From Dehalococcoidia bacterium (lineage in GTDB: Bacteria > Chloroflexota > Dehalococcoidia > JAUQQI01), in the NCBI GenBank assembly GCA_034432015.1, contig DAOUCL010000043.1, forward strand, positions 1 to 61,867: DNA of 61,867 nt, read 5' to 3'. Numbering within the stretch: position 1 is the stretch's first letter; every line of letters starts with the position of its first letter. Positions 8,397-41,939 of this stretch are shown one piece after another. A program made the position numbers and the translations under genes. A model generated the notes under the pieces. It was not told the origin of the DNA and did no database searches. It saw only the letters and a list, made by a program, of their open reading frames with translations.

Positions 8397-9872
8397 ATGG
8401 GGGCCCTGGTTGACCTCAGCCTTAAGTTTGTTGGCTACCCCGGCCGGGCGCCGGTTCTGGCCGACCTGGGCTTAAGCCTCGGGCCGGGGGAGGTGGTGGG
8501 CATCGTCGGGCCCACCGAGTCCGGCAAGACCACCCTGGCATACCTTTTGGCCGGCCTCATCCCCGGGGCGGTTCCGGGGCGGGCCTCGGGCCGGCTCGTA
8601 ATCGCCGGCCGGGCCTGGGACTTTAACCGCCCCCCGGACCGCCGAGAATGGCTCGGGCAGGTGGGCCTGGTCCTGGCGGAGCCGTACTTCCAGCTCAGCG
8701 GGGCCGCCGACACCGTCGCCGAGGAGGTGGGCTTTCCCCTGGAAAACCTGGGGCTCAGGCCCGAGGAGGTAAAGGCCCGGGTGGCCGGGCTTCTGGAAAG
8801 GTTCGGGCTTGGGCTTCTGGCCGACCGCTCCCCTTTTCAGCTTTCGGTGGGGCAGCAGCAGCGGGTAGTCCTGGGGGCCACCTGGGCCCCCGGGCCGAAG
8901 GTGCTGGTCCTCGACGACGCCTTCGAACACCTGGACGGGGCCGGGTGGGCGGCCTTGCGGCAACTTTTAACCGAGGGAAAGGCCGCGGGCAAAGCCGCCA
9001 TCCTCCTGAGCGGCCGGCTTCGGCGCCTGGAAGGATTGGCCGACCGGCTCCTTCGGCTGGAAGGGGGCCGCCTCTACCCCGGTCCCCCGCCCCGGCCCGG
9101 CGACGGGCCGAATCCCGGGCCCCGAACCGAGCCGGGGCCGCCGGTCGTGGAGGTCGAGGAACTCTGGGCCGGCTACTCGCCCGGGGAGACGGTCTTAGCC
9201 GGGGTATCTTTTCGGGTCCGGGCCGGGGAAGCCCTCGCCCTGGTGGGGCCCAACGGGGCCGGCAAGTCCACATTGCTTTTGGCCCTGCTGGGGCTCCTTC
9301 GGCCCCGGGCGGGGCGGGTGAGGATTTTCGGCCTGGACGCCGGTCGGGAGGCCCCCTGGCGTCTGGCCCGGCTCATCGGCTACCTGCCCCAGAATCCGGC
9401 CGAAGGCCTCTTCGGGCCGACGGTCTGGGACGACGTCGCCTTCGGCCCCCGAAATCTGGGGCTCCCGGCCGGGGAAGTGCGACGGCGGGCCGAGGCCTCC
9501 CTTTCGGCCGTCGGCCTCGGCGACCGGGCCGGCCGCCATCCCCTCGACCTGAGCCCGGGCTGGCGGCGGCTGGTTGCCCTGGCCTCCATCCTGGCCTTAG
9601 AAACCCCCATTCTGGCCTTGGACGAGCCGACGGTGGGCCTCGACGACGGCCTCTACGGCCGCCTGGTGGGGTTACTGGGGCGGCTTAAAGGGGCGGGCCG
9701 AACCTTGCTTCTGGTCTCCCAGGACCTGGAGTTCGTCGGGCAGGTGGCCGACCGGGTGGTCTTTCTGGCCGGGGGGCGGCTGGTGGGTGAGGGTTCGGCC
9801 CGGGCCGTCCTCAGCGAAACACCGCCTGCTGAAGGCCGTCCCCCACCAGATTCACCGCCAGGGCCGTTATAA
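8397..9872 (+). CDS. ECF/ABC transporter ATP-binding protein with two fused ATPase domains (YkoD-like)
   Basis: Two Walker A sites (GPTESGKTT, GPNGAGKST), two signature-like motifs (LSVGQQQR, LSPGWRR) and two Walker B sites (LVLDDA, LALDEP). Confidence 0.85.
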   Translation: MGALVDLSLKFVGYPGRAPVLADLGLSLGPGEVVGIVGPTESGKTTLAYLLAGLIPGAVPGRASGRLVIAGRAWDFNRPPDRREWLGQVGLVLAEPYFQLSGAADTVAEEVGFPLENLGLRPEEVKARVAGLLERFGLGLLADRSPFQLSVGQQQRVVLGATWAPGPKVLVLDDAFEHLDGAGWAALRQLLTEGKAAGKAAILLSGRLRRLEGLADRLLRLEGGRLYPGPPPRPGDGPNPGPRTEPGPPVVEVEELWAGYSPGETVLAGVSFRVRAGEALALVGPNGAGKSTLLLALLGLLRPRAGRVRIFGLDAGREAPWRLARLIGYLPQNPAEGLFGPTVWDDVAFGPRNLGLPAGEVRRRAEASLSAVGLGDRAGRHPLDLSPGWRRLVALASILALETPILALDEPTVGLDDGLYGRLVGLLGRLKGAGRTLLLVSQDLEFVGQVADRVVFLAGGRLVGEGSARAVLSETPPAEGRPPPDSPPGPL

Positions 9873-10689
9873 GGATCACCAGGCCGGGAAAGAGGGGTAT
9901 CCACCAGGCCCCCGAAAGGGCGGCCACCTGGCCGTCCGTCAGCATATTGCCCCAGGAGGCCTCGAAGGGCGGTACCCCCAGGCCCAGAAAGCTCAGGGCG
10001 GCCTCGATTAAGACGGCGTCGGCCACCCCTAGGGTGGCAAAGACGATAACCGGGCCGGCCACATTGGGAAGAAGGTGGCGGCCGATGATGCGGCCGGTGG
10101 GCAACCCCAGGGCCCGGGCGGCCAGGATAAACTCCCGCTCCCGCAGGCTCAAAACCTGGCCCCGCACGATGCGGGCCAGGCCCAGCCAGGTGGTCAGGCC
10201 AATGATGCCGACCACGTTCCAGACGGAGGGGGGAAGGAGGGACTGGACAGCCACCAGGATAAAGAAGGTGGGCATTGAAAGGAGGGCATCCACCGTCCGG
10301 GAAAGGACCGCATCCACCCAGCCGCCGAAATAGCCGGCCGCCAGCCCCACCAGGGTTCCCAGGAAGGTGGCCAGGAGCACGGCGGCGGCCGCCACGAAGA
10401 GGGAGACCCGGGCCCCGAAAAGGAGGCGGCTGGCGATATCCCGGCCCAGGCGGTCGGTTCCCAGGGGGTGTTCGGGACTGGGGGGCCGCGCCCGGGCGGC
10501 CAGGTCGATGTAGTCGGGGGGATAGGGGGCAAGCACCGGGGCCAGGAGGGCCAGCAGGACCACGACGCCCAGCACCAGCCCGGCCAGGAAGGCCGTCCGG
10601 TGGCGGACGAAGGCCCGGCCGGTGCGCACCCACGGGCTCTCGGCCTTTAAAGGGGTGTCGGGCCTGGGCGGCAGGGTTTGGGCCTTCAC
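9811..10689 (-). CDS. ABC peptide/nickel transporter permease (DppC/OppC type)
   Basis: BPD_transp_1 core with a typical OppC-like N-terminus. It overlaps the upstream permease stop by 4 nt. Confidence 0.85.
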   Translation of the reverse strand: MKAQTLPPRPDTPLKAESPWVRTGRAFVRHRTAFLAGLVLGVVVLLALLAPVLAPYPPDYIDLAARARPPSPEHPLGTDRLGRDIASRLLFGARVSLFVAAAAVLLATFLGTLVGLAAGYFGGWVDAVLSRTVDALLSMPTFFILVAVQSLLPPSVWNVVGIIGLTTWLGLARIVRGQVLSLREREFILAARALGLPTGRIIGRHLLPNVAGPVIVFATLGVADAVLIEAALSFLGLGVPPFEASWGNMLTDGQVAALSGAWWIPLFPGLVILITALAVNLVGDGLQQAVFR

Positions 10690-11645
10690 CGGCTCTTCCC
10701 GTAGCGGATTCTCGGGTCGGCCACCCCGTAGGCCAGGTCGGCCAGGAGGCTCCCCAAAATGACCAGCGCCCCCACCAGCACGACCTCCCCCATAAGCACC
10801 GGGTAATTCCGGGCAAAGGCCGCCTCCACCAGCAGCCGACCCATCCCGGGCCAGCTGAAAAGGGTTTCGACCACCACCGACCCGCCCACCAGCCGGGGAA
10901 TAAAGAGGCCGACCAGGGTGATGGCCGGCAGGGCGGCGTTCCGAAAGGCGTGGTCCAGGACGACCCGGTACTCGGGCAGGCCCTTGGCCCGGGCCAGCCG
11001 AATATAGTCCTGGCCAAGCACCTCGACCATTCCCGCCCGGGTGTAGCGGATGAGACTGGCCATCTCCCGGAGGGAGAGGACAAAGGCCGGCAGGATCAGG
11101 TGGCTGAGCCGGTCGGCCAGGGAGGTAGGCCCCCGGACGGACTGCATTCCGGCCGAAGGAAGCCAGCCGAGCCAGACGGAGAAAATCAAAACCAAAATGA
11201 GGCCCAGCCAGAAGTTAGGGGCCGAATAAAGGACCGTCGAAACTGTGGTTACGGCGTAATCGAGCCGGGAGAGGGGCCGCAGGGCGGATACTATCCCGAC
11301 GGTGATGCCCACCACCAGGGCGATGGCCAGGGCCGACGCCGTCAGGTAAAGGGTTGCGGGCAGCCGCTCCAAGATAACGTCCCGCACCGGCCGGCCGTCG
11401 GCAAAGGAGCGGCCGAAGTCGAGCTGAACAAAGCGGCCCAGCCAACGCAGATACTGGAGGGGCAATGGGTCCTCCAGGCCCCAGGCCGTCCGAACGGCCT
11501 TAAGCTCCTCGGCCGAGAGGTCGGGACCGTAAAGGAGGGCCGCCGGGTCGCCGGGGGCCAGGTGCAAAAGTCCAAAGGCCAGGATACTTACCAGCAGGAG
11601 CACGAAGAGCCCCTGGCCCATTCGGGCGATGAGGTAGCCGGTCAC
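10686..11645 (-). CDS. ABC peptide/nickel transporter permease (DppB/OppB type)
   Basis: The N-terminus MTGYLIARMGQGLFVLLLVSILAFGLLHLAPGDP is diagnostic of DppB/OppB. Confidence 0.85.
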   Translation of the reverse strand: MTGYLIARMGQGLFVLLLVSILAFGLLHLAPGDPAALLYGPDLSAEELKAVRTAWGLEDPLPLQYLRWLGRFVQLDFGRSFADGRPVRDVILERLPATLYLTASALAIALVVGITVGIVSALRPLSRLDYAVTTVSTVLYSAPNFWLGLILVLIFSVWLGWLPSAGMQSVRGPTSLADRLSHLILPAFVLSLREMASLIRYTRAGMVEVLGQDYIRLARAKGLPEYRVVLDHAFRNAALPAITLVGLFIPRLVGGSVVVETLFSWPGMGRLLVEAAFARNYPVLMGEVVLVGALVILGSLLADLAYGVADPRIRYGKSR

Positions 11646-11687
11646 CGGTGCCCCGTCCCGGCGATTCTAACCCCAAAGGTTTAAGGT

Positions 11688-19295: not shown

Positions 19296-19952
19296 TTATT
19301 CTTCGGGGCTGGCCTGGTTGGCCCGAAGGTATTCGAGGCTACGCCGGTACCAGAATTCGTCGATGAGGCCCGTGTTGTAGTAATAGTTGAGCATCACCGT
19401 AAGGCGCAGAATCGGAACCAGGTTGTAGCCCCGGCGCCGGAGCCGCTCCGTTGCCCCCTGTTCCCGGTCCACCAGGACAATAACATCCCTCACCTTAAGG
19501 CCGTGGGCTTCGAGAATCCCGGCCGTTTCCAGAATGCTACCCCCGGTGGTTATCAGGTCGTCGATGATGAGGACCGTCTGGCCCTCTTCATAGCGGCCCT
19601 CGATCCGGTGGTCCCTTTCGCCCCCCGGCCGGACGTAAATCATCGGAGTTTCGGTGAGGAGGGAGAAGGCAGTGGCCAGGTGCAGGCCCCCAAAGGGGAC
19701 CCCGGCCACCAGGTCGAAGGGGGCGATGCGGGGGCGCCGGCGGGCCTGGCCGAAGCTGGTCTCCTGGCGAATAAGTTCGGCCACCGCCTTTAGATACCGG
19801 GGCTGGCTCACCAGCACCCGGGGATTGATGTAAACGGGCGAGTCGACCGTGGTGCGGCCCAGGGTGAAGCTCCCAAATTGAACCCCACCCAGGTCGAACA
19901 GCGCCCGGGCAAGCCACAGGTTACCTTTAAGTTCGTTGGATGCCGATTCCAT
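19296..19952 (-). CDS. pyrE: orotate phosphoribosyltransferase-like (type I PRTase)
   Basis: PRPP-binding loop VLIIDDLITTGGSILE and overall OPRTase-like layout. It is not in a pyr operon. Confidence 0.7.
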   Translation of the reverse strand: MESASNELKGNLWLARALFDLGGVQFGSFTLGRTTVDSPVYINPRVLVSQPRYLKAVAELIRQETSFGQARRRPRIAPFDLVAGVPFGGLHLATAFSLLTETPMIYVRPGGERDHRIEGRYEEGQTVLIIDDLITTGGSILETAGILEAHGLKVRDVIVLVDREQGATERLRRRGYNLVPILRLTVMLNYYYNTGLIDEFWYRRSLEYLRANQASPEE

Positions 19953-20465: not shown

Positions 20466-21956
20466 ATGGAGTACGAGGCGGTCATCGGCCTTGAGGTCCA
20501 CTCCCAGCTTCTAACCCGGAGCAAAATGTTCTGCCGGTGCCCGGCCTTAGACTACGCCCGGGCCGAGCCCAACACCCGGGTCTGCCCCATCTGCCTGGGC
20601 ATGCCCGGGGTGCTGCCCGTCATCAATCGGCGGGCGGTTGAATACACCATTATGACCGGCCTTGCCCTCAACTGCGAAATCGCCCGGTTCTCCAAGTTCG
20701 ACCGCAAAAACTACATGTACCCCGACCTGATGAAAAACTACCAGATCTCCCAGTACGACCTGCCCCTCTGCCGCAACGGCTGGCTCGATATCGAACTAAA
20801 CGGCCGGTCAAAGCGAGTGGGCATTATCCGGGTCCACCTGGAGGAAGATACCGCCCGCCTCCTCCACCGGACCGACCCCTCGGGGGAAACTTACTCCTTG
20901 ATCGACGTTAACCGGAGCGGGGTGCCCCTCCTGGAGATCGTCACTGCCCCGGACCTCCGCTCCCCCGAAGAGGCCCGGGCCTTCCTCGTTAAGCTGCGGA
21001 CCATCCTACAGTACCTTGGGGTCTCTTCCGGGAGCATGGAGGAGGGCAGCCTGCGCTGCGATGCCAACGTAAGCGTTCGGCCCGTCGGGGAGGCCCGCTT
21101 CGGCACCAAGGTCGAGGTCAAGAACATGAACAGCTTCCGCTCGGTGTACCGGGCCCTGGCCTACGAAATCGAGCGGCAGATCGGCCTCCTTAAAGCCGGC
21201 CGGCAAATAACTCAGGAGACCCGGGGCTGGCTGGAAGATAAGGGCATAACCGTACCCCAGCGCACCAAAGAGTACGCCCACGACTACCGTTACTTTCCCG
21301 AACCCGACCTTCCGCCCCTTACGCCGGCCCCGGAGTGGGTGGAGTCCATCCGCCAAAGGCTTCCCGAACTGCCCGACGCCCGCCGGGACCGCTTCATGGC
21401 CGAGTACGGGCTGGGCCGCTACGATGCCGCCCTCCTGACCGAAGAGAAGGCCCTGGCCGACTTCTTCGAGGCGGCCGTAAAGCTTACCGAGGGCCGGCCG
21501 GCCCTGGCCAAGGTTCCCCTGCCCCAGCGGGCCAAATCCCTGGCCAACTGGCTGCTTAATGAAACCCGGGGGCTGCTGGAGGCCACCGGCCGCGGTCTGG
21601 CCGAGACGGGCCTCGGGCCGGAGCATTACGTGGAGCTCCTTGAGCTCCTGGAAGAGGGGACGTTAAGCAGCCGGCTCGCCAAGCAGGTCTTCGAGGAGGT
21701 CTTCCGCACCGGCAAACTGCCCCGTCAGGTGGTGGCCGAACAGGGGCTGGTGCGCATCACCGACGTTGACCAGCTCCTGGCCGTTATCGACCGGGTAATC
21801 GCCGAGAATCCGGCCGCCGTCGCCGACTACCAGAAGGGCAAGGCCCAGGCCCTCACCTTCCTGGTGGGCCAGGTGATGAAGGCGACCCGGGGCAAGGCTG
21901 ACCCGGCCCTCACCAACCAACTGCTGCGAGAGCGGCTGGGGGGCAGTTTAGGATGA
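20466..21956 (+). CDS. gatB: Asp-tRNA(Asn)/Glu-tRNA(Gln) amidotransferase subunit B
   Basis: [20 protein letters not shown] and a full-length GatB pattern with a C-terminal YqeY-like tail. Confidence 0.95.
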
Positions 21957-36550: not shown

Positions 36551-37108
36551 ATGGTCTTTCAGCCGGCCCAACTCGAATCGGCAGGGGTTTTACTCACCGC
36601 CCTGCTGGTCAGGCTGCTTATAAGCCTGGTCATCTTAGGGGTCGCCTACCTGGTTACCGGGCGGGTTTCGGGCCTGGTAAACCGGGTGCTGGCCCGGACC
36701 CGGGCTGAGCCCAACGCCCGCCTCCTGGTCGCCCGGATCATCCAGGGTGGGGTTTGGGCGGTGGCCGGGCTGGTCATCCTGGGGGTTTGGGGGACCGAGC
36801 TGGGGGCCCTGGCCGCCGGGGTCGGCCTCTTCAGCCTGGCCATCTCCATCGCCCTTCAGGACGTTCTGCGCAACTGGGTCGTGGGCCTTTACCTGCTCAT
36901 CGAGCGACCCTTTAAGATCGGCGACCGGGTGGCCCTTAAGGACAGCCTGGGGGTCATCGAGGACGTTCAGCTCCGGGTGACCCGGATCCGGGCCGACGAC
37001 GGCCGGGTGATCTACATCCCGAACCTGACGGTTTTTAACGAGATAATCGCCGTCCTTCCCCCCACCCCCAGGGCCGAAGACTCCGGCCCTTCCCAGACCC
37101 AGGCCTAG
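36551..37108 (+). CDS. small mechanosensitive ion channel (MscS family)
   Basis: Three TM helices followed by the ERPFKIGDRV beta-domain motif. Confidence 0.75.
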   Translation: MVFQPAQLESAGVLLTALLVRLLISLVILGVAYLVTGRVSGLVNRVLARTRAEPNARLLVARIIQGGVWAVAGLVILGVWGTELGALAAGVGLFSLAISIALQDVLRNWVVGLYLLIERPFKIGDRVALKDSLGVIEDVQLRVTRIRADDGRVIYIPNLTVFNEIIAVLPPTPRAEDSGPSQTQA

Positions 37109-38193
37109 GCCGTCCCAGGCCGCCTCCGGACGACCCGAACGGCGTACCGGGTCGCCTCGGCCAGAAACCGGCCCACCTCCCAGGCGGGCACCCCCCGCCG
37201 GGCCAGGGCGGCCCGAAGGGCCCCCGCCCGCTCGGGGGCGACGGCGATGAGCAGTCCGCCCGAGGTCTGGGCATCGGCCAGGATGAGCTTTTCGGCCTCG
37301 GTAAAGGCGTCGGCCCACTCGACCCGCACCCGGCCGGCCTTTTCGGTGCCGGAGAGGAAGGCCAGGTTTCGGCGGGTGCCCCCGGGCACCACCCCGGCCT
37401 CGGCCAGCTCCCGGACCGCCGGCATCAGGGGCACCGCCTCGAAGTAGACCTCCGCCCCCAGGGGGCTTTCCCGGACCATTTCGTAGAGGTGGCCCAGGAG
37501 GCCGTAGCCGGTGACGTCGGTGGCCGCCCGCACCCCCACCTCCACCATCGCCTCCGAGGCCTCCCGGTTGAGGGTGAGCATCCAGCGGACGGCCTCGGCC
37601 ACGGCTTCGGGCGGGGCCACCTCCCGCTTAATGGCCGTGGAGATGATGCCCGTTCCCAAAGGTTTGGTCAGAAAGAGGCGGTCGCCGGGACGGGCGGCCG
37701 TCTTGGCGATGATGCGCTCGGGGTGGACGGTTCCGGTTACTACCAGTCCGTACTTGGGCTCCGGGTCGTCGATGGAGTGGCCGCCGATAATCGGGGCCCC
37801 GGCCTCCCGGGCCTTCTCGGCCCCACCCCGCAGGATCTCCACCAGCACCTCCCGGGGCAGGGTATTAACGGGGAAGCCGATGATGTTCAGGGCGAAGCGG
37901 GGCCGGCCGCCCATCGCGTAGATGTCGCTTAAGGCGTTGGCGGCCGCAATGGCGCCGAAGAGAAAGGGGTCGTCCACGATGGGGGTAAAGAAATCGACCG
38001 TCTGGACCACGGCCAGGTCGTCCGAAAGACGGTAAACCCCGGCGTCGTCCGGCCGGTCGAGGCCGACCAGGACGTTGGGGTCGGTAAAAAAGGGCACCCG
38101 GCTCAGGACCTCGACGAGGTCCTCAGGACTTAGCTTGCAGGCTCAGCCGGCGCCGTGGGATAAGGTTGTAAGCCGAATCCTTTCCCGCTCCAA
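37105..38193 (-). CDS. selD: selenide, water dikinase (selenophosphate synthetase), selenocysteine-containing; UGA at 38145..38143 read as Sec
   Basis: The listed ORF (start 38097) lacks the catalytic N-terminus. The frame stays open upstream through one TGA to TTG 38193, giving (M)[31 protein letters not shown]. This aligns to E. coli [25 protein letters not shown]. Confidence 0.85.
38102..38126 (-). promoter_or_regulatory. SECIS-like hairpin downstream of the selD UGA
   Basis: 8-bp stem AGGACCUC/GAGGUCCU with an apical GUC, plus 2 outer pairs. It starts about 17-20 nt 3' of the UGA. Confidence 0.5.
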
Positions 38194-38196
38194 GGG

Positions 38197-39129
38197 CTAC
38201 CACCAGATAATTTTCTCGGCCGTCTCGGCCAGCTCTTCGGTCGGGGTGGTCCAGACGCCGCTCGACAGATACTTCCAGCCGCCGTCGGCAAAAAGGACGA
38301 CGATGTTGGCCGCGGTGAGCCGCTCGGCGTATTTTAGGGCGGCGTAGAGGGCCGCCCCGGAGGAGATGCCGGCGAAGATCCCCTCCCGGTGAAGCAGTTC
38401 CCGGGTGAGCCGGAAGGAGTCGATGGCCCGGACTAAAATCTTGCCGTCCAGGAGGTTAAGGTCGAGAATCGGGGGAACAAAGCCCTCCTCCAGGCTTCGG
38501 AGGCCCTGAACCTGCTCCCCGGGGTGGGGTTCGGCGGCGACCACCCGGATGTTCGGGTTGTATTCTTTGAGGCGGCGACCGACCCCCATCAGGGTGCCGC
38601 CGGTACCCAGGCCGGCGACGAAGACGTCGACATCAGGCAGGTCTTCGAGGATCTCCGGCCCGGTGGTCTCGTAGTGGGCCAGGGGGTTGGCCAGATTCCC
38701 GTACTGGTAGGGCATAAAGTACTGGGGGTCCTCGGCCAGCTTGAGGGCCACCTCGATGGAACCGTTGGTGCCCCGGCGGCCGTCGGTAAGGATTATTTCG
38801 GCCCCGAAGGCCTGAAGCACCTGCCGGCGCTCGACGCTTACATTTTCGGGCATCACCACCTTTAGCCGGTAGCCCTTCACCCGGCAGACCATGGCCAGGG
38901 AGATGCCGGTGTTGCCGCTGGTGGGCTCAAGGACGGTCTTATCCGGGGTGAGCTTGCCCTCGGCCTCGGCCCGCTCGATCATATACTTGGCGATCCGGTC
39001 CTTAAGGCTGCCCGAGGGGTTGTGACCCTCGAGCTTGGCGAAGATACGGACCCCTTCCTTCGGCCGGAACCGCTTAAGCTCCACTAAAGGCGTCCGGCCG
39101 ATGGCCCCCAGAATGTCATCGCAGCGCAT
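38197..39129 (-). CDS. cysM: cysteine synthase, CysM-like (candidate CysO-thiocarboxylate-dependent)
   Basis: PLP-enzyme motifs (NPSGSLKDR, TSGNTG, GTGGT). ATG 39129 follows a GGAGG formed by the Gly-Gly codons of cysO. The alternative start TTG 39147 is listed on the track. Confidence 0.85.
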   Translation of the reverse strand: MRCDDILGAIGRTPLVELKRFRPKEGVRIFAKLEGHNPSGSLKDRIAKYMIERAEAEGKLTPDKTVLEPTSGNTGISLAMVCRVKGYRLKVVMPENVSVERRQVLQAFGAEIILTDGRRGTNGSIEVALKLAEDPQYFMPYQYGNLANPLAHYETTGPEILEDLPDVDVFVAGLGTGGTLMGVGRRLKEYNPNIRVVAAEPHPGEQVQGLRSLEEGFVPPILDLNLLDGKILVRAIDSFRLTRELLHREGIFAGISSGAALYAALKYAERLTAANIVVLFADGGWKYLSSGVWTTPTEELAETAEKIIWW

Positions 39130-39409
39130 GGTCTTGGCCTCCGGCAAGGGCCGGCAAAATGGAAAGGACGTCCCCGTCCCGGGTGGGGGTATTGAGCCGC
39201 TGGAGGAAACGGACGTCCTCGTCGTTTAGATAAATGTTGATATGCCGCCGGATCTCCCCGTTTTCGTCCAGCAGAAGCTTTTTAATGCCGGGGAACTGCT
39301 GTTCCAGCCGGTCCAGGATTTCCCCGACCGTTCGGCCTTCGACCTTGATCACCTTCTGGCCGCCCACGGCCGACTGAAGGATCGCCGGAACCCGAACTTC
39401 AACCGCCAT
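39116..39409 (-). CDS. cysO: CysO/MoaD/ThiS-family ubiquitin-fold sulfur-carrier protein (97 aa) with a 6-residue tail after Gly-Gly
   Basis: MAVEVRVPAILQSAVGGQK...NIYLNDEDVRF...DGDVLSILPALAGG-QDHALR resembles M. tuberculosis CysO (..NIYVNDEDVRF...DGDSVTILPAVAGG). Only the last 97 codons of track ORF 39116-39874 are coding. Confidence 0.8.
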   Translation of the reverse strand: MAVEVRVPAILQSAVGGQKVIKVEGRTVGEILDRLEQQFPGIKKLLLDENGEIRRHINIYLNDEDVRFLQRLNTPTRDGDVLSILPALAGGQDHALR

Positions 39410-39428
39410 AGTCCTTTTCTCCGGGTCT

Positions 39429-40523
39429 TCAGCTCTGGGCGAGCACGGGCACGCCGCAGAAGGCTTCGTAGTCGATAAGCTCGGTGATGGTGGGGTTGTC
39501 CCCGCAGACCGGGCAGTTGGGGTTGCGGCGAATCTTAACGGTACGAAAGTCCATCGCCAGGGTGTCGATGAGGAGCAGCCGCCCGACCAACGGCTCGCCC
39601 AGCCCGAGAATGAGCTTGATGGCCTCGGTGGCCTGGATGCAGCCCACCAGGCCGGTAACCACCCCGAAGACGCCCGCCTCGGCGCAATTGGGCACCGCCC
39701 CGGGGGGCGGCGGGGCCGGGTAGAGGCACCGGTAGCAGCCGTGGCCCGGCATAAAGACCGTGACCTGGGCGTCGAACTTAAAGACGCTGGCGTCCACCAG
39801 GGGCTTTTTAAGAAAGACGCAGGCGTCGTTGACCAGGTAGCGGGTGGGGAAGTTGTCCGAGCCGTTGAGGACAACGTCGTAGTCTTTGATAATATCTAGG
39901 GCGTTGGCCGAGGTTAAAGCGGTGTTGTAGGGCACGACCTCGACGTCGGGGTTGATGCGCCGGACGGTGTCCCGGGCCGACTCCACCTTCGGCCGGCCGA
40001 TGTCGTCGGTGTGGTGGATGACCTGCCGCTGCAGGTTCGAAAGGTCGACCACGTCGAAGTCCACAACCCCGATCCGGCCGACTCCGGCGGCAGCCAGGTA
40101 GAGAATAGCCGGGGAGCCCAGCCCCCCCGCCCCGATGACCAGGACGCTGGACCCCAAAAGCTTGCGCTGGCCGGCCCCCCCGATCTCCGGCATGATCATG
40201 TGCCGGCTGTAGCGGATCACCTGCTCGGGGGTTAGGGTTCGGGGGGCCGCCCCACCGGCCAACGCCGGCACCACCGCAATCTCATCCCCGTCCCGGACCG
40301 GGGTACTCGGGCCGGCCAGGTCCTCGATCTCCTGGCTGTTCACGTAGACGTTGACGTACCGGCGCAGCCGGCCGGCCTCGTCGAAGAGCTCGGCCTTAAG
40401 CTCGGGAAACTGGGCCGCAAGCCGGTCCAGGGCCTCGGCCACATCCCGGGCCTCCACCTGGACCCGGGCCTGGTTGCCCGTAAACCGCCGCAAGGGCGTC
40501 CCGATGTAGACGTTAACCGGCAT
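39429..40523 (-). CDS. fusion protein: N-terminal CysO-like Ubl domain (ending ALAGG) + ThiF/MoeB-type E1 adenylyltransferase (no rhodanese domain)
   Basis: MPVNVYIG...NVYVNSQEIE...DGDEIAVVPALAGG-AAPRTLTPEQVIRYSRHMIMPEIG, the Rossmann motif VIGAGGLGS, and two CxxC pairs (CYRC, CPVC). ATG 40523 is spaced 11 nt from GGAGGG. Confidence 0.8.
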   Translation of the reverse strand: MPVNVYIGTPLRRFTGNQARVQVEARDVAEALDRLAAQFPELKAELFDEAGRLRRYVNVYVNSQEIEDLAGPSTPVRDGDEIAVVPALAGGAAPRTLTPEQVIRYSRHMIMPEIGGAGQRKLLGSSVLVIGAGGLGSPAILYLAAAGVGRIGVVDFDVVDLSNLQRQVIHHTDDIGRPKVESARDTVRRINPDVEVVPYNTALTSANALDIIKDYDVVLNGSDNFPTRYLVNDACVFLKKPLVDASVFKFDAQVTVFMPGHGCYRCLYPAPPPPGAVPNCAEAGVFGVVTGLVGCIQATEAIKLILGLGEPLVGRLLLIDTLAMDFRTVKIRRNPNCPVCGDNPTITELIDYEAFCGVPVLAQS

Positions 40524-40545
40524 CTTCACCATTACCCTCCGTCGG

Positions 40546-41490
40546 TTAAAATGGCATCGTCAGGTAGCGTTCACCGGTATCGGGCAGGATGGTCACCACC
40601 ACCTTGCCCGCCCCGAGCCGCTCTGCCACCTGCAAGGCCGCAAAGACGTTGGCCCCGGAAGATATCCCCACCAGAAGCCCCTCCTCCCGGGCGAGGCGGG
40701 CGGCGGTGGCGATGGCATCCTCATCCCGCACGTGGATGAGCTCGTCGATGACCTCCCGATTGAGCACCCCGGGCACGAAGCTGGCCCCCATCCCCTGAAT
40801 GGCGTGGGGCCGGAACTTGCCCCCGGCCAGCACCGGGGCTTTGGCGGGTTCCACCCCGACCACCAGCACCCCGGGAACCTCCGCCTTAAGCACCTCGCCC
40901 ACCCCCGTTATGGTGCCGCCGGTGCCGATGCCGATGACCACGGCGTTCACCTTCCCGTCGGTGGCCTCCAGGATCTCCCGGGCCGTCGTCTGCCGGTGGA
41001 TTTCGGGGTTGGCCGGGTTTTCGAACTGCTGGGGCATAAAGTAGCCGTATTTTTCCACCAGCTCCTGGGCGGCGTAAACCGCCCCGGTCATCCCCTCGAT
41101 GGCCGGGGTAAGGATTATCTCCGCCCCGAACCGCTGGAGGAGCCGGCGCCGCTCGATGCTCATATCCTCCGGCATCGTCAGGATTAGCCGGTAGCCCTTT
41201 ACGGCGGCCACCATCGCCAGGCCGATGCCGGTGTTGCCGCTGGTCGGCTCCACAATAGTGTCCCCGGGCTTTAAAATTCCGGCCCGCTCGGCCGCCTCCA
41301 CCATGGCCAGGGCGATGCGGTCCTTGACGCTTCCGGCCGGGTTAAGGGATTCCAGCTTGGCATAGATGGTGGCCGAGCCCGGCTTCGGCAGCCGGTTCAG
41401 CCGGACCATGGGGGTATTGCCGATAAGGTCTAGGACGCTTTCGGCGATTTTGGGCCGGGTTAAGACCTTGCGCGGAGCCCCCTCGGCCAT
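40546..41490 (-). CDS. cysK: cysteine synthase A (O-acetylserine sulfhydrylase)
   Basis: [38 protein letters not shown]. The start is trimmed to ATG 41490 behind AAGGA. Confidence 0.9.
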
Positions 41491-41501
41491 GGTTTGTCCT
41501 T

Positions 41502-41939
41502 TTAGATGTGATAAATCACCCGGGTTTCGGCCTGCTCTTCCCGCTCCAGCAGGTCCTGAAGGGTGACCGAATCGAGGATGCGCCGGGTCACCGCCCGGAC
41601 CTCCTGCCAGACCGACCGCTGGCCGCACCGCTCCGAGAGCTGGCAGGCGCCCATGTCATCCAGGCAGTCCAGGACGGCGATATTGCCCTCGAGGGCGGCG
41701 ACGACCTCCCCCATGGTGATCTGACTGGGGGGCCGCATAAGCATGTGGCCGCCCTGGGGCCCCCGGATGCTCCGGATGAGGCCGGCCTTCCGCAGCACCG
41801 TCAGCAGCTGGTCCAGGTAGGGTTCGGGGATGAACTGGCGGGCCGCGATCTCGCTGGTCTGCACGGGCCCCTCACCGTAATGGCGGGCCAGGTCCACCAT
41901 CGCCCGGATGCCATAATCGGCCTTCATGGAGATGCGCAT
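41502..41939 (-). CDS. Rrf2-family transcriptional regulator (IscR/CymR-like) with a three-Cys cluster-type motif
   Basis: [14 protein letters not shown]... wHTH, then [14 protein letters not shown] (C-x6-C-x5-C). Confidence 0.85.

Follow-up and report, generated by a model that had tools for sequence, protein, structure and literature searches.

Is the in-frame TGA near the 5' end of a Chloroflexota selD gene a stop codon, or is it read as selenocysteine (Sec)? The question is raised by a contig of 61,867 nucleotides (hereafter the window, i.e., the whole stretch of DNA that was analyzed), which has a GC content of 67% and comes from an uncultured hot-spring Chloroflexota. The ORF-caller start of selD, at GTG 38097, drops 32 codons, and the called product is 330 aa long versus 362 aa for the full frame; gene callers take UGA as a stop and resume at the next GTG, which results in a 330-aa product without the catalytic loop. 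The original prediction held that the minus-strand frame stays open upstream of this GTG, through a single TGA, to TTG 38193, and that the next in-frame stop upstream is the cysM TAG at 38199..38197. We re-read every coordinate on the minus strand and arrived at the same frame, verified the position of the cysM TAG, and reproduced the translation of the extension exactly. Here, we consider this selD very probably to be a genuine selenoprotein gene in which Sec would be inserted at codon 17 through UGA, a reading made from nucleotide and predicted protein sequences. The TTG at the 5' end of the frame is probably the selD start, and in the aligned contigs of relatives a GTG is found at the position aligned with it. 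A GGUGG element just upstream may serve as the Shine-Dalgarno sequence of selD (Table 1).

Table 1. Features of the selD region in the window, hairpin registers in Sec-type selD genes, and loci outside the clade that link selD with E1 and CysM-like genes.
Feature	Coordinates or position	Strand	Remarks
selD, full-length CDS	37105..38193	minus	362 codons plus TAG; Sec predicted at codon 17; one in-frame TGA
selD stop TAG	37107..37105	minus	Read from the sequence
selD putative start TTG	38191..38193	minus	Earliest start codon past the upstream in-frame stop; 3 nt after the cysM stop
Shine-Dalgarno-like GGUGG	38200..38204	minus	6 nt 5' of the TTG, within the end of cysM; invariant among relatives
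In-frame TGA, selD codon 17	38143..38145	minus	Followed by A18, C19, K20
GTG (Val33)	38095..38097	minus	ORF-caller start; internal codon of full selD
SECIS-like hairpin	38105..38123	minus	8-bp stem AGGACCUC/GAGGUCCU, 3-nt loop GUC
cysM-like PLP enzyme gene	38197..39147	minus	TIGR01136 cysKM, 362.8 bits; synteny kept in L001-L007
Hairpin register	33 nt after UGA		20 sequences; GGCGCAG-GUN-CUGCGCC (LAQVLR codons)
Hairpin register	15-20 nt after UGA		~22 sequences; GGUCC-GGG-GGACC (GPGDL codons)
Hairpin register	27 nt after UGA		Window clade and two others
selD-E1/CysM linkage outside the clade	L080:10001-13579; L085:3784-8264; L043:1511-11000		Three unrelated loci

Aligned to the SelD families, the extended protein gives a full-length match to TIGR00476 (402.8 bits, cutoff 125, profile positions 1-310 of 311), and scores 393.8 bits on NF002098 (cutoff 299). 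The truncated ORF scores 370.4 bits on TIGR00476 and its match begins at profile position 34, i.e., the 32-codon extension raises the SelD HMM score by 32 bits and accounts for profile positions 1-33, which bears out the claim that the enzyme without it would lack its glycine-rich catalytic loop. PF00586 and PF02769 (AIRS and AIRS_C; PurM-like) are present, as precomputed domains, on the window SelD (P0001) and on all of its relatives. The best match among solved structures is Escherichia coli SelD (PDB 3U0O; phmmer, 301 bits, residues 3-344), in which Cys17, Cys19, and Lys20 align with U17, C19, and K20 under identical numbering; the UGA had been predicted to fall on catalytic residue 17, with Lys20 conserved, and it does. 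The stretch SHGAG-U-ACK here corresponds to SHGAGCGCK in E. coli SelD, a correspondence that holds only if UGA is read through. E. coli SelD has a TGC Cys codon at this position and needs no recoding, whereas the window selD has TGA. The second structure match is SelD of Aquifex aeolicus (2YYE/2ZOD), a natural selenoprotein of the same family that was crystallized with Cys in place of Sec; U17 aligns with this Sec-to-Cys position, i.e., the Sec position is the same in both. From the family match, the selD product is predicted to be an enzyme that makes selenophosphate from selenide in an ATP-dependent manner.

A hairpin follows the UGA in the coding region (Table 1). Its stem begins 19 nt and its loop 27 nt past the UGA, the SECIS-like placement that the original prediction had assigned to it, and codons E24-D25-L26 and E28-V29-L30 (EDL-x-EVL) form the stem. 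The bSECISearch model of Zhang and Gladyshev (2005) is said to place the loop 16-37 nt after the UGA, into which 27 nt fits. Throughout the clade of the window and its relatives the stems are invariant, and the loop reads GUC, GGG, or GGC, always with G first. None of the six stem codons is synonymously variable versus 138 of the 286 comparable codons elsewhere in selD (Fisher p = 0.02). With a comparable hairpin taken as a perfectly paired stem of 8 bp or more and a loop of 3-8 nt that starts 16-37 nt downstream and has G in loop nt 1-2, the probability of one after a random position of the contig is ~0.004-0.006 (~0.5%), and 4 of the 929 TGA triplets in the contig have one, selD's own included. 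The fold energy of the 59-nt segment is unremarkable versus shuffles (z = -0.91). There is no compensatory covariation, since the stems never vary in the clade. No Rfam family matches the hairpin region, and no SECIS family does so even with E up to 10, which is expected because a single model does not capture the diversity of SECIS elements in bacteria (PMC12013277).

Bacterial SECIS elements are stem-loops with a small apical loop that contains a G (PMC1088965). Among 82 distinct SelD genes from other species, the best downstream hairpin has a mean of -14.6 kcal/mol in the 55 Sec-type genes versus -11.2 kcal/mol in the 27 Cys-type genes (Mann-Whitney p = 0.005), and a G is found in the first two loop nucleotides of 48/55 versus 13/27. 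Within one conserved peptide, the hairpins of Sec-type selD genes occupy at least three discrete registers (L008-L087, 57 nt after the residue-17 codon; Table 1), and that of the window clade is shifted two codons relative to the commonest of them; such a shift would imply co-evolution with the clade's SelB, a reading that we consider unlikely. The E. coli fdhF-type SECIS is likewise a coding-region stem-loop just downstream of the UGA with a small G-containing apical loop; the window hairpin, in contrast, has a loop of 3 nt only and its MFE fold has no bulged U, and SelB binding is putative. We consider this hairpin a candidate SECIS that would be bound by SelB.

If the UGA is decoded as Sec, the decoding genes should be found elsewhere in the genome, and the original prediction pointed to selA, selB, and tRNA-Sec (selC). 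This expectation was borne out in part: the lineage has selA and selB, as does a sequencing run that matches the window at 100%, while tRNA-Sec was not found in the loci searched. Within the window itself, the ORFs of selA or selB size were identified as aroA, ABC ATPases, a CoA-transferase, PurL, and other genes. Please note that the link to selA and selB is made via the run in question, X2, and not via the window's own assembly. X2 carries a single-organism label and consists of 1.64 Mb of Logan contigs at low coverage; it is 100% identical to the window over ~55-60% of an 18-kb stretch at a depth of 3.4-5.7. Judging from its label, its size, and its uniform depth, X2 seemingly represents one organism.

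For selA, an X2 contig of 1,700 nt aligns collinearly, in two blocks, with a Chloroflexota selA (L065); translated in the selA frame, the contig ends outside the alignment give LCLAGLAATL and LARSRGIWL. Eight metagenome contigs, all with full-length SelA, were retrieved with a degenerate DNA pattern encoding LCLAGLAATL; three of the eight match the window in GC and share synteny, and one of these three (FWWL01003285.1) is from the same assembly as a relative of the window selD (L004). On TIGR00474 (cutoff 268), the SelA proteins of the clade reach 551-571 bits. X2 contigs at a depth of 4-5.6 collinearly tile the 9.5-kb clade selA locus at ~90-93% identity, and all of selA is covered. For selB, a 2,156-nt X2 contig at a depth of 5.5 aligns at 83% with the G-domain region of a selB gene from Dehalococcoidia; X2 itself contains only this part of the gene. 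The motifs DRLP.EK..MT.DLGF and EHLEILDLL of this fragment are what we take to be SelB-like. When the X2 segment was embedded in a SelB-length scaffold as the query and the segment alone was scored, the top match was P0171 (620 aa), 100% identical over about 93-95 aa. P0171 contains SelB winged-helix domains and matches the full TIGR00475 profile with 351 bits (cutoff 242). SelA of the clade and SelB of the P0171 type co-occur in two independent assemblies (JGI 3300020139 and ENA ERZ27245891). SelA and SelB orthologues in the window lineage are shared with the E. coli fdhF-type decoding system (SelB/SelA/SelC).

A tRNA-Sec gene was found neither in the window, nor in X2, nor in 113 kb of clade loci. 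The tRNA-Sec of L065 used as a query gave no match in X1 or X2, and that of L051 gave a partial match only, in X1 and X3, in a sequence that is not callable by ARAGORN. In X1, an 11-kb contig carries a partial tRNA-Sec-like D-arm and anticodon arm with UCA; its depth is 21.9, and the selD and selB contigs of a relative in the same run have depths of 21.8 and 20.9, respectively. Depth alone is suggestive of the tRNA-Sec-like contig belonging to this relative. Within 10 kb of clade selA neither selB nor selC was found, and selC is likewise absent within 10 kb of selB; selD, selA, and selB of the clade are on separate contigs with unrelated neighborhoods. This arrangement differs from that of L065, a MAG of the same phylum which also has a Sec-type selD and whose SelA is 57% identical to the clade's: there, a 6-kb cluster contains tRNA-Sec, selB, selA, and selD, whereas selD, selA, and selB are dispersed in the window clade. 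We infer that the organism has a tRNA-Sec gene.

The search for tRNA-Sec bears on an alternative in which UGA is read through without Sec, e.g., with Cys or Trp inserted by a near-cognate tRNA, or Cys by Cys-tRNA(Sec), so that a Cys-type or other enzyme would result, at least under selenium limitation. When selenium is scarce, Cys can be mis-inserted at Sec codons, and the empty result for tRNA-Sec in the sequences just named would agree with such a reading. Nevertheless, we regard it as very unlikely, as the lineage keeps dedicated SelA and SelB genes and a hairpin with conserved stems is found at SECIS distance. TGA is an ordinary stop elsewhere in the contig and ends, e.g., gatB at 21954-21956; the genetic code is therefore not reassigned. 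A Cys codon, moreover, is only one mutation away, and 28 of the 80 other species have one here. Please note that this count, with TGA in 52/80 and TGC or TGT in 28/80, refers to the residue-17 codon of species-representative SelD loci among the matches listed, and that C stood in for U in the search pattern, which biases it towards Cys forms.

The conservation of the TGA and of its flanks was then considered as evidence for translation through codon 17. The closest SelD relatives are 86-88% identical, and all database entries of the clade are 326-332 aa long; this is the same N-terminal truncation as in the window. At the nucleotide level, seven related contigs (L001-L007, from JGI, NCBI, ENA, and Logan assemblies), which represent three sequence types ~12-13% apart in protein, all carry the TGA, and no alternative base is seen at this codon in four sequencing runs (X1-X4). 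In three comparisons, the synonymous:nonsynonymous changes in selD codons 2-32 are 8:4, 10:3, and 5:2, and those in the rest of selD are 103:41, 91:38, and 96:35; the changes include an AGT to TCG serine switch. The ratio in the extension matches that of the gene body, which indicates that the extension is translated sequence under equal constraint, and the ratio just downstream of the TGA also equals that of the gene body. In close relatives, purifying selection has kept both the TGA and the peptide encoded upstream of it, which speaks against the concern, raised with the original prediction, that orthologues might start downstream and leave the upstream peptide without conservation.

It is highly improbable, in view of these ratios, that UGA is a true stop, with selD starting at GTG 38097 as a 330-aa product and the upstream sequence being non-coding or a short leader peptide. 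All of the gene-caller output for the clade, at 326-332 aa, is in line with a true stop; however, the resulting product would be devoid of profile positions 1-33, including the catalytic Cys/Sec17 and Lys20, and the gene-body ratio of the 32 upstream codons would leave a conserved peptide unexplained. Those codons, furthermore, encode the canonical IRLT..SHGAG(U/C)xCK, which is found in 80 other species. An error of assembly or sequencing at the TGA, or a recent decay of selD into a pseudogene, is hardly credible at all even though the window is a metagenome-assembled contig of low coverage (depth ~5 in X1 and X2), as the identical TGA is present in the seven contigs of independent assemblies and three sequence types and unchanged in the four runs, selD has no further disruptions, and purifying selection acts on both sides of the TGA.

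We return to selD as a selenoprotein gene and propose the following decoding. Translation would begin at TTG 38193, three bases past the cysM stop, and the ribosome would reach the UGA at codon 17 while the downstream stem-loop of the mRNA is bound by SelB. SelB would then bring Sec-tRNA(Sec), made by SelA from Ser-tRNA(Sec) with the selenophosphate that SelD itself produces. Sec would in this way be placed where E. coli SelD has Cys17, in the glycine-rich N-terminal loop together with Cys19 and Lys20.

The genomic context of selD is conserved in the clade as well. selD closes an operon of the order Rrf2, cysK, ThiS::ThiF fusion, ThiS-like carrier, and cysM (window 37105-41939, minus), and the relatives L001-L007 share the order Rrf2, PALP, ThiS-ThiF, ThiS, PALP, a 99-nt "gap," and selD. 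The cysM gene is probably co-transcribed and translationally coupled with selD. Outside the clade, selD lies within a few kb of E1 (ThiF/MoeZ-like) and CysM-like genes in three MAGs, two of Actinomycetota and one of Methylomirabilota (Table 1). One could speculate, with considerable reserve, that selenium, too, is handled by the protein-thiocarboxylate cysteine pathway, which might, e.g., supply or sequester selenide for SelD or take part in the discrimination between sulfur and selenium; we consider this an unlikely, although not negligible, explanation of the linkage.

Several other observations were made in the window and in the clade loci. With regard to the corollary of the original prediction, that annotation of this genome would truncate further selenoprotein genes, the three other TGA triplets with a comparable hairpin do not stand out as selenoprotein candidates, one being out of frame and two antisense to called genes as judged from the ORF list only; this screen of the window catches perfect 8-bp hairpins only. 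Rejected was a TGA upstream of the ORF at 19296-19952, which precedes a non-conserved Arg/Pro-rich stretch. ARAGORN reports "tRNA-Pro (ggg)" calls of 94-96 nt in GC-rich coding sequence, at 37118-37213 (minus) of the window, L003:10884-10979, and L096:354-447, the former two being situated in the 3' end of selD with no Rfam tRNA at the gathering threshold; the long-variable-arm search has almost certainly produced false positives here. At 9653-11684 of the window, two long ORFs of 469 aa (plus) and 476 aa (minus) overlap, neither of them with an NCBIfam match. A NurA-like nuclease and a family-B DNA polymerase (PF03104/PF00136) are encoded just downstream of clade selB (L099:11867-17867), and a gene for a 111-aa thioredoxin adjoins clade selA on the opposite strand (L096:11433-11768 and L098:4353-4688). 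Thioredoxin-fold proteins are often selenoproteins.

A Sec-type selD with UGA at the catalytic site is a common, well-documented, and standard bacterial arrangement. SelD is one of the two selenoproteins that are most widespread in bacteria (PMC1794560), and it is a selenoprotein in many organisms (PMC12013277). Sec-containing forms are described from Moorella thermoacetica, Symbiobacterium thermophilum, and many Deltaproteobacteria and Clostridia. The window selD shares with these Sec-type genes a coding-region stem-loop after the UGA and the peculiarity that the synthesis of SelD depends on the product of SelD itself. It differs from them in its hot-spring Chloroflexota host, in a loop at 27 nt rather than at 33 or 15-20 nt, and in its position at the end of a cysO/cysM-type operon, not adjacent to selA or selB.

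The scientific value of this case is small, as the literature has described Sec-type SelD, and how it is mis-annotated, for two decades. For the family, it means that all public SelD entries of the clade, at 326-332 aa, are without the catalytic loop and need correction; for the organism, it means that the lineage can be scored as Sec-decoding.
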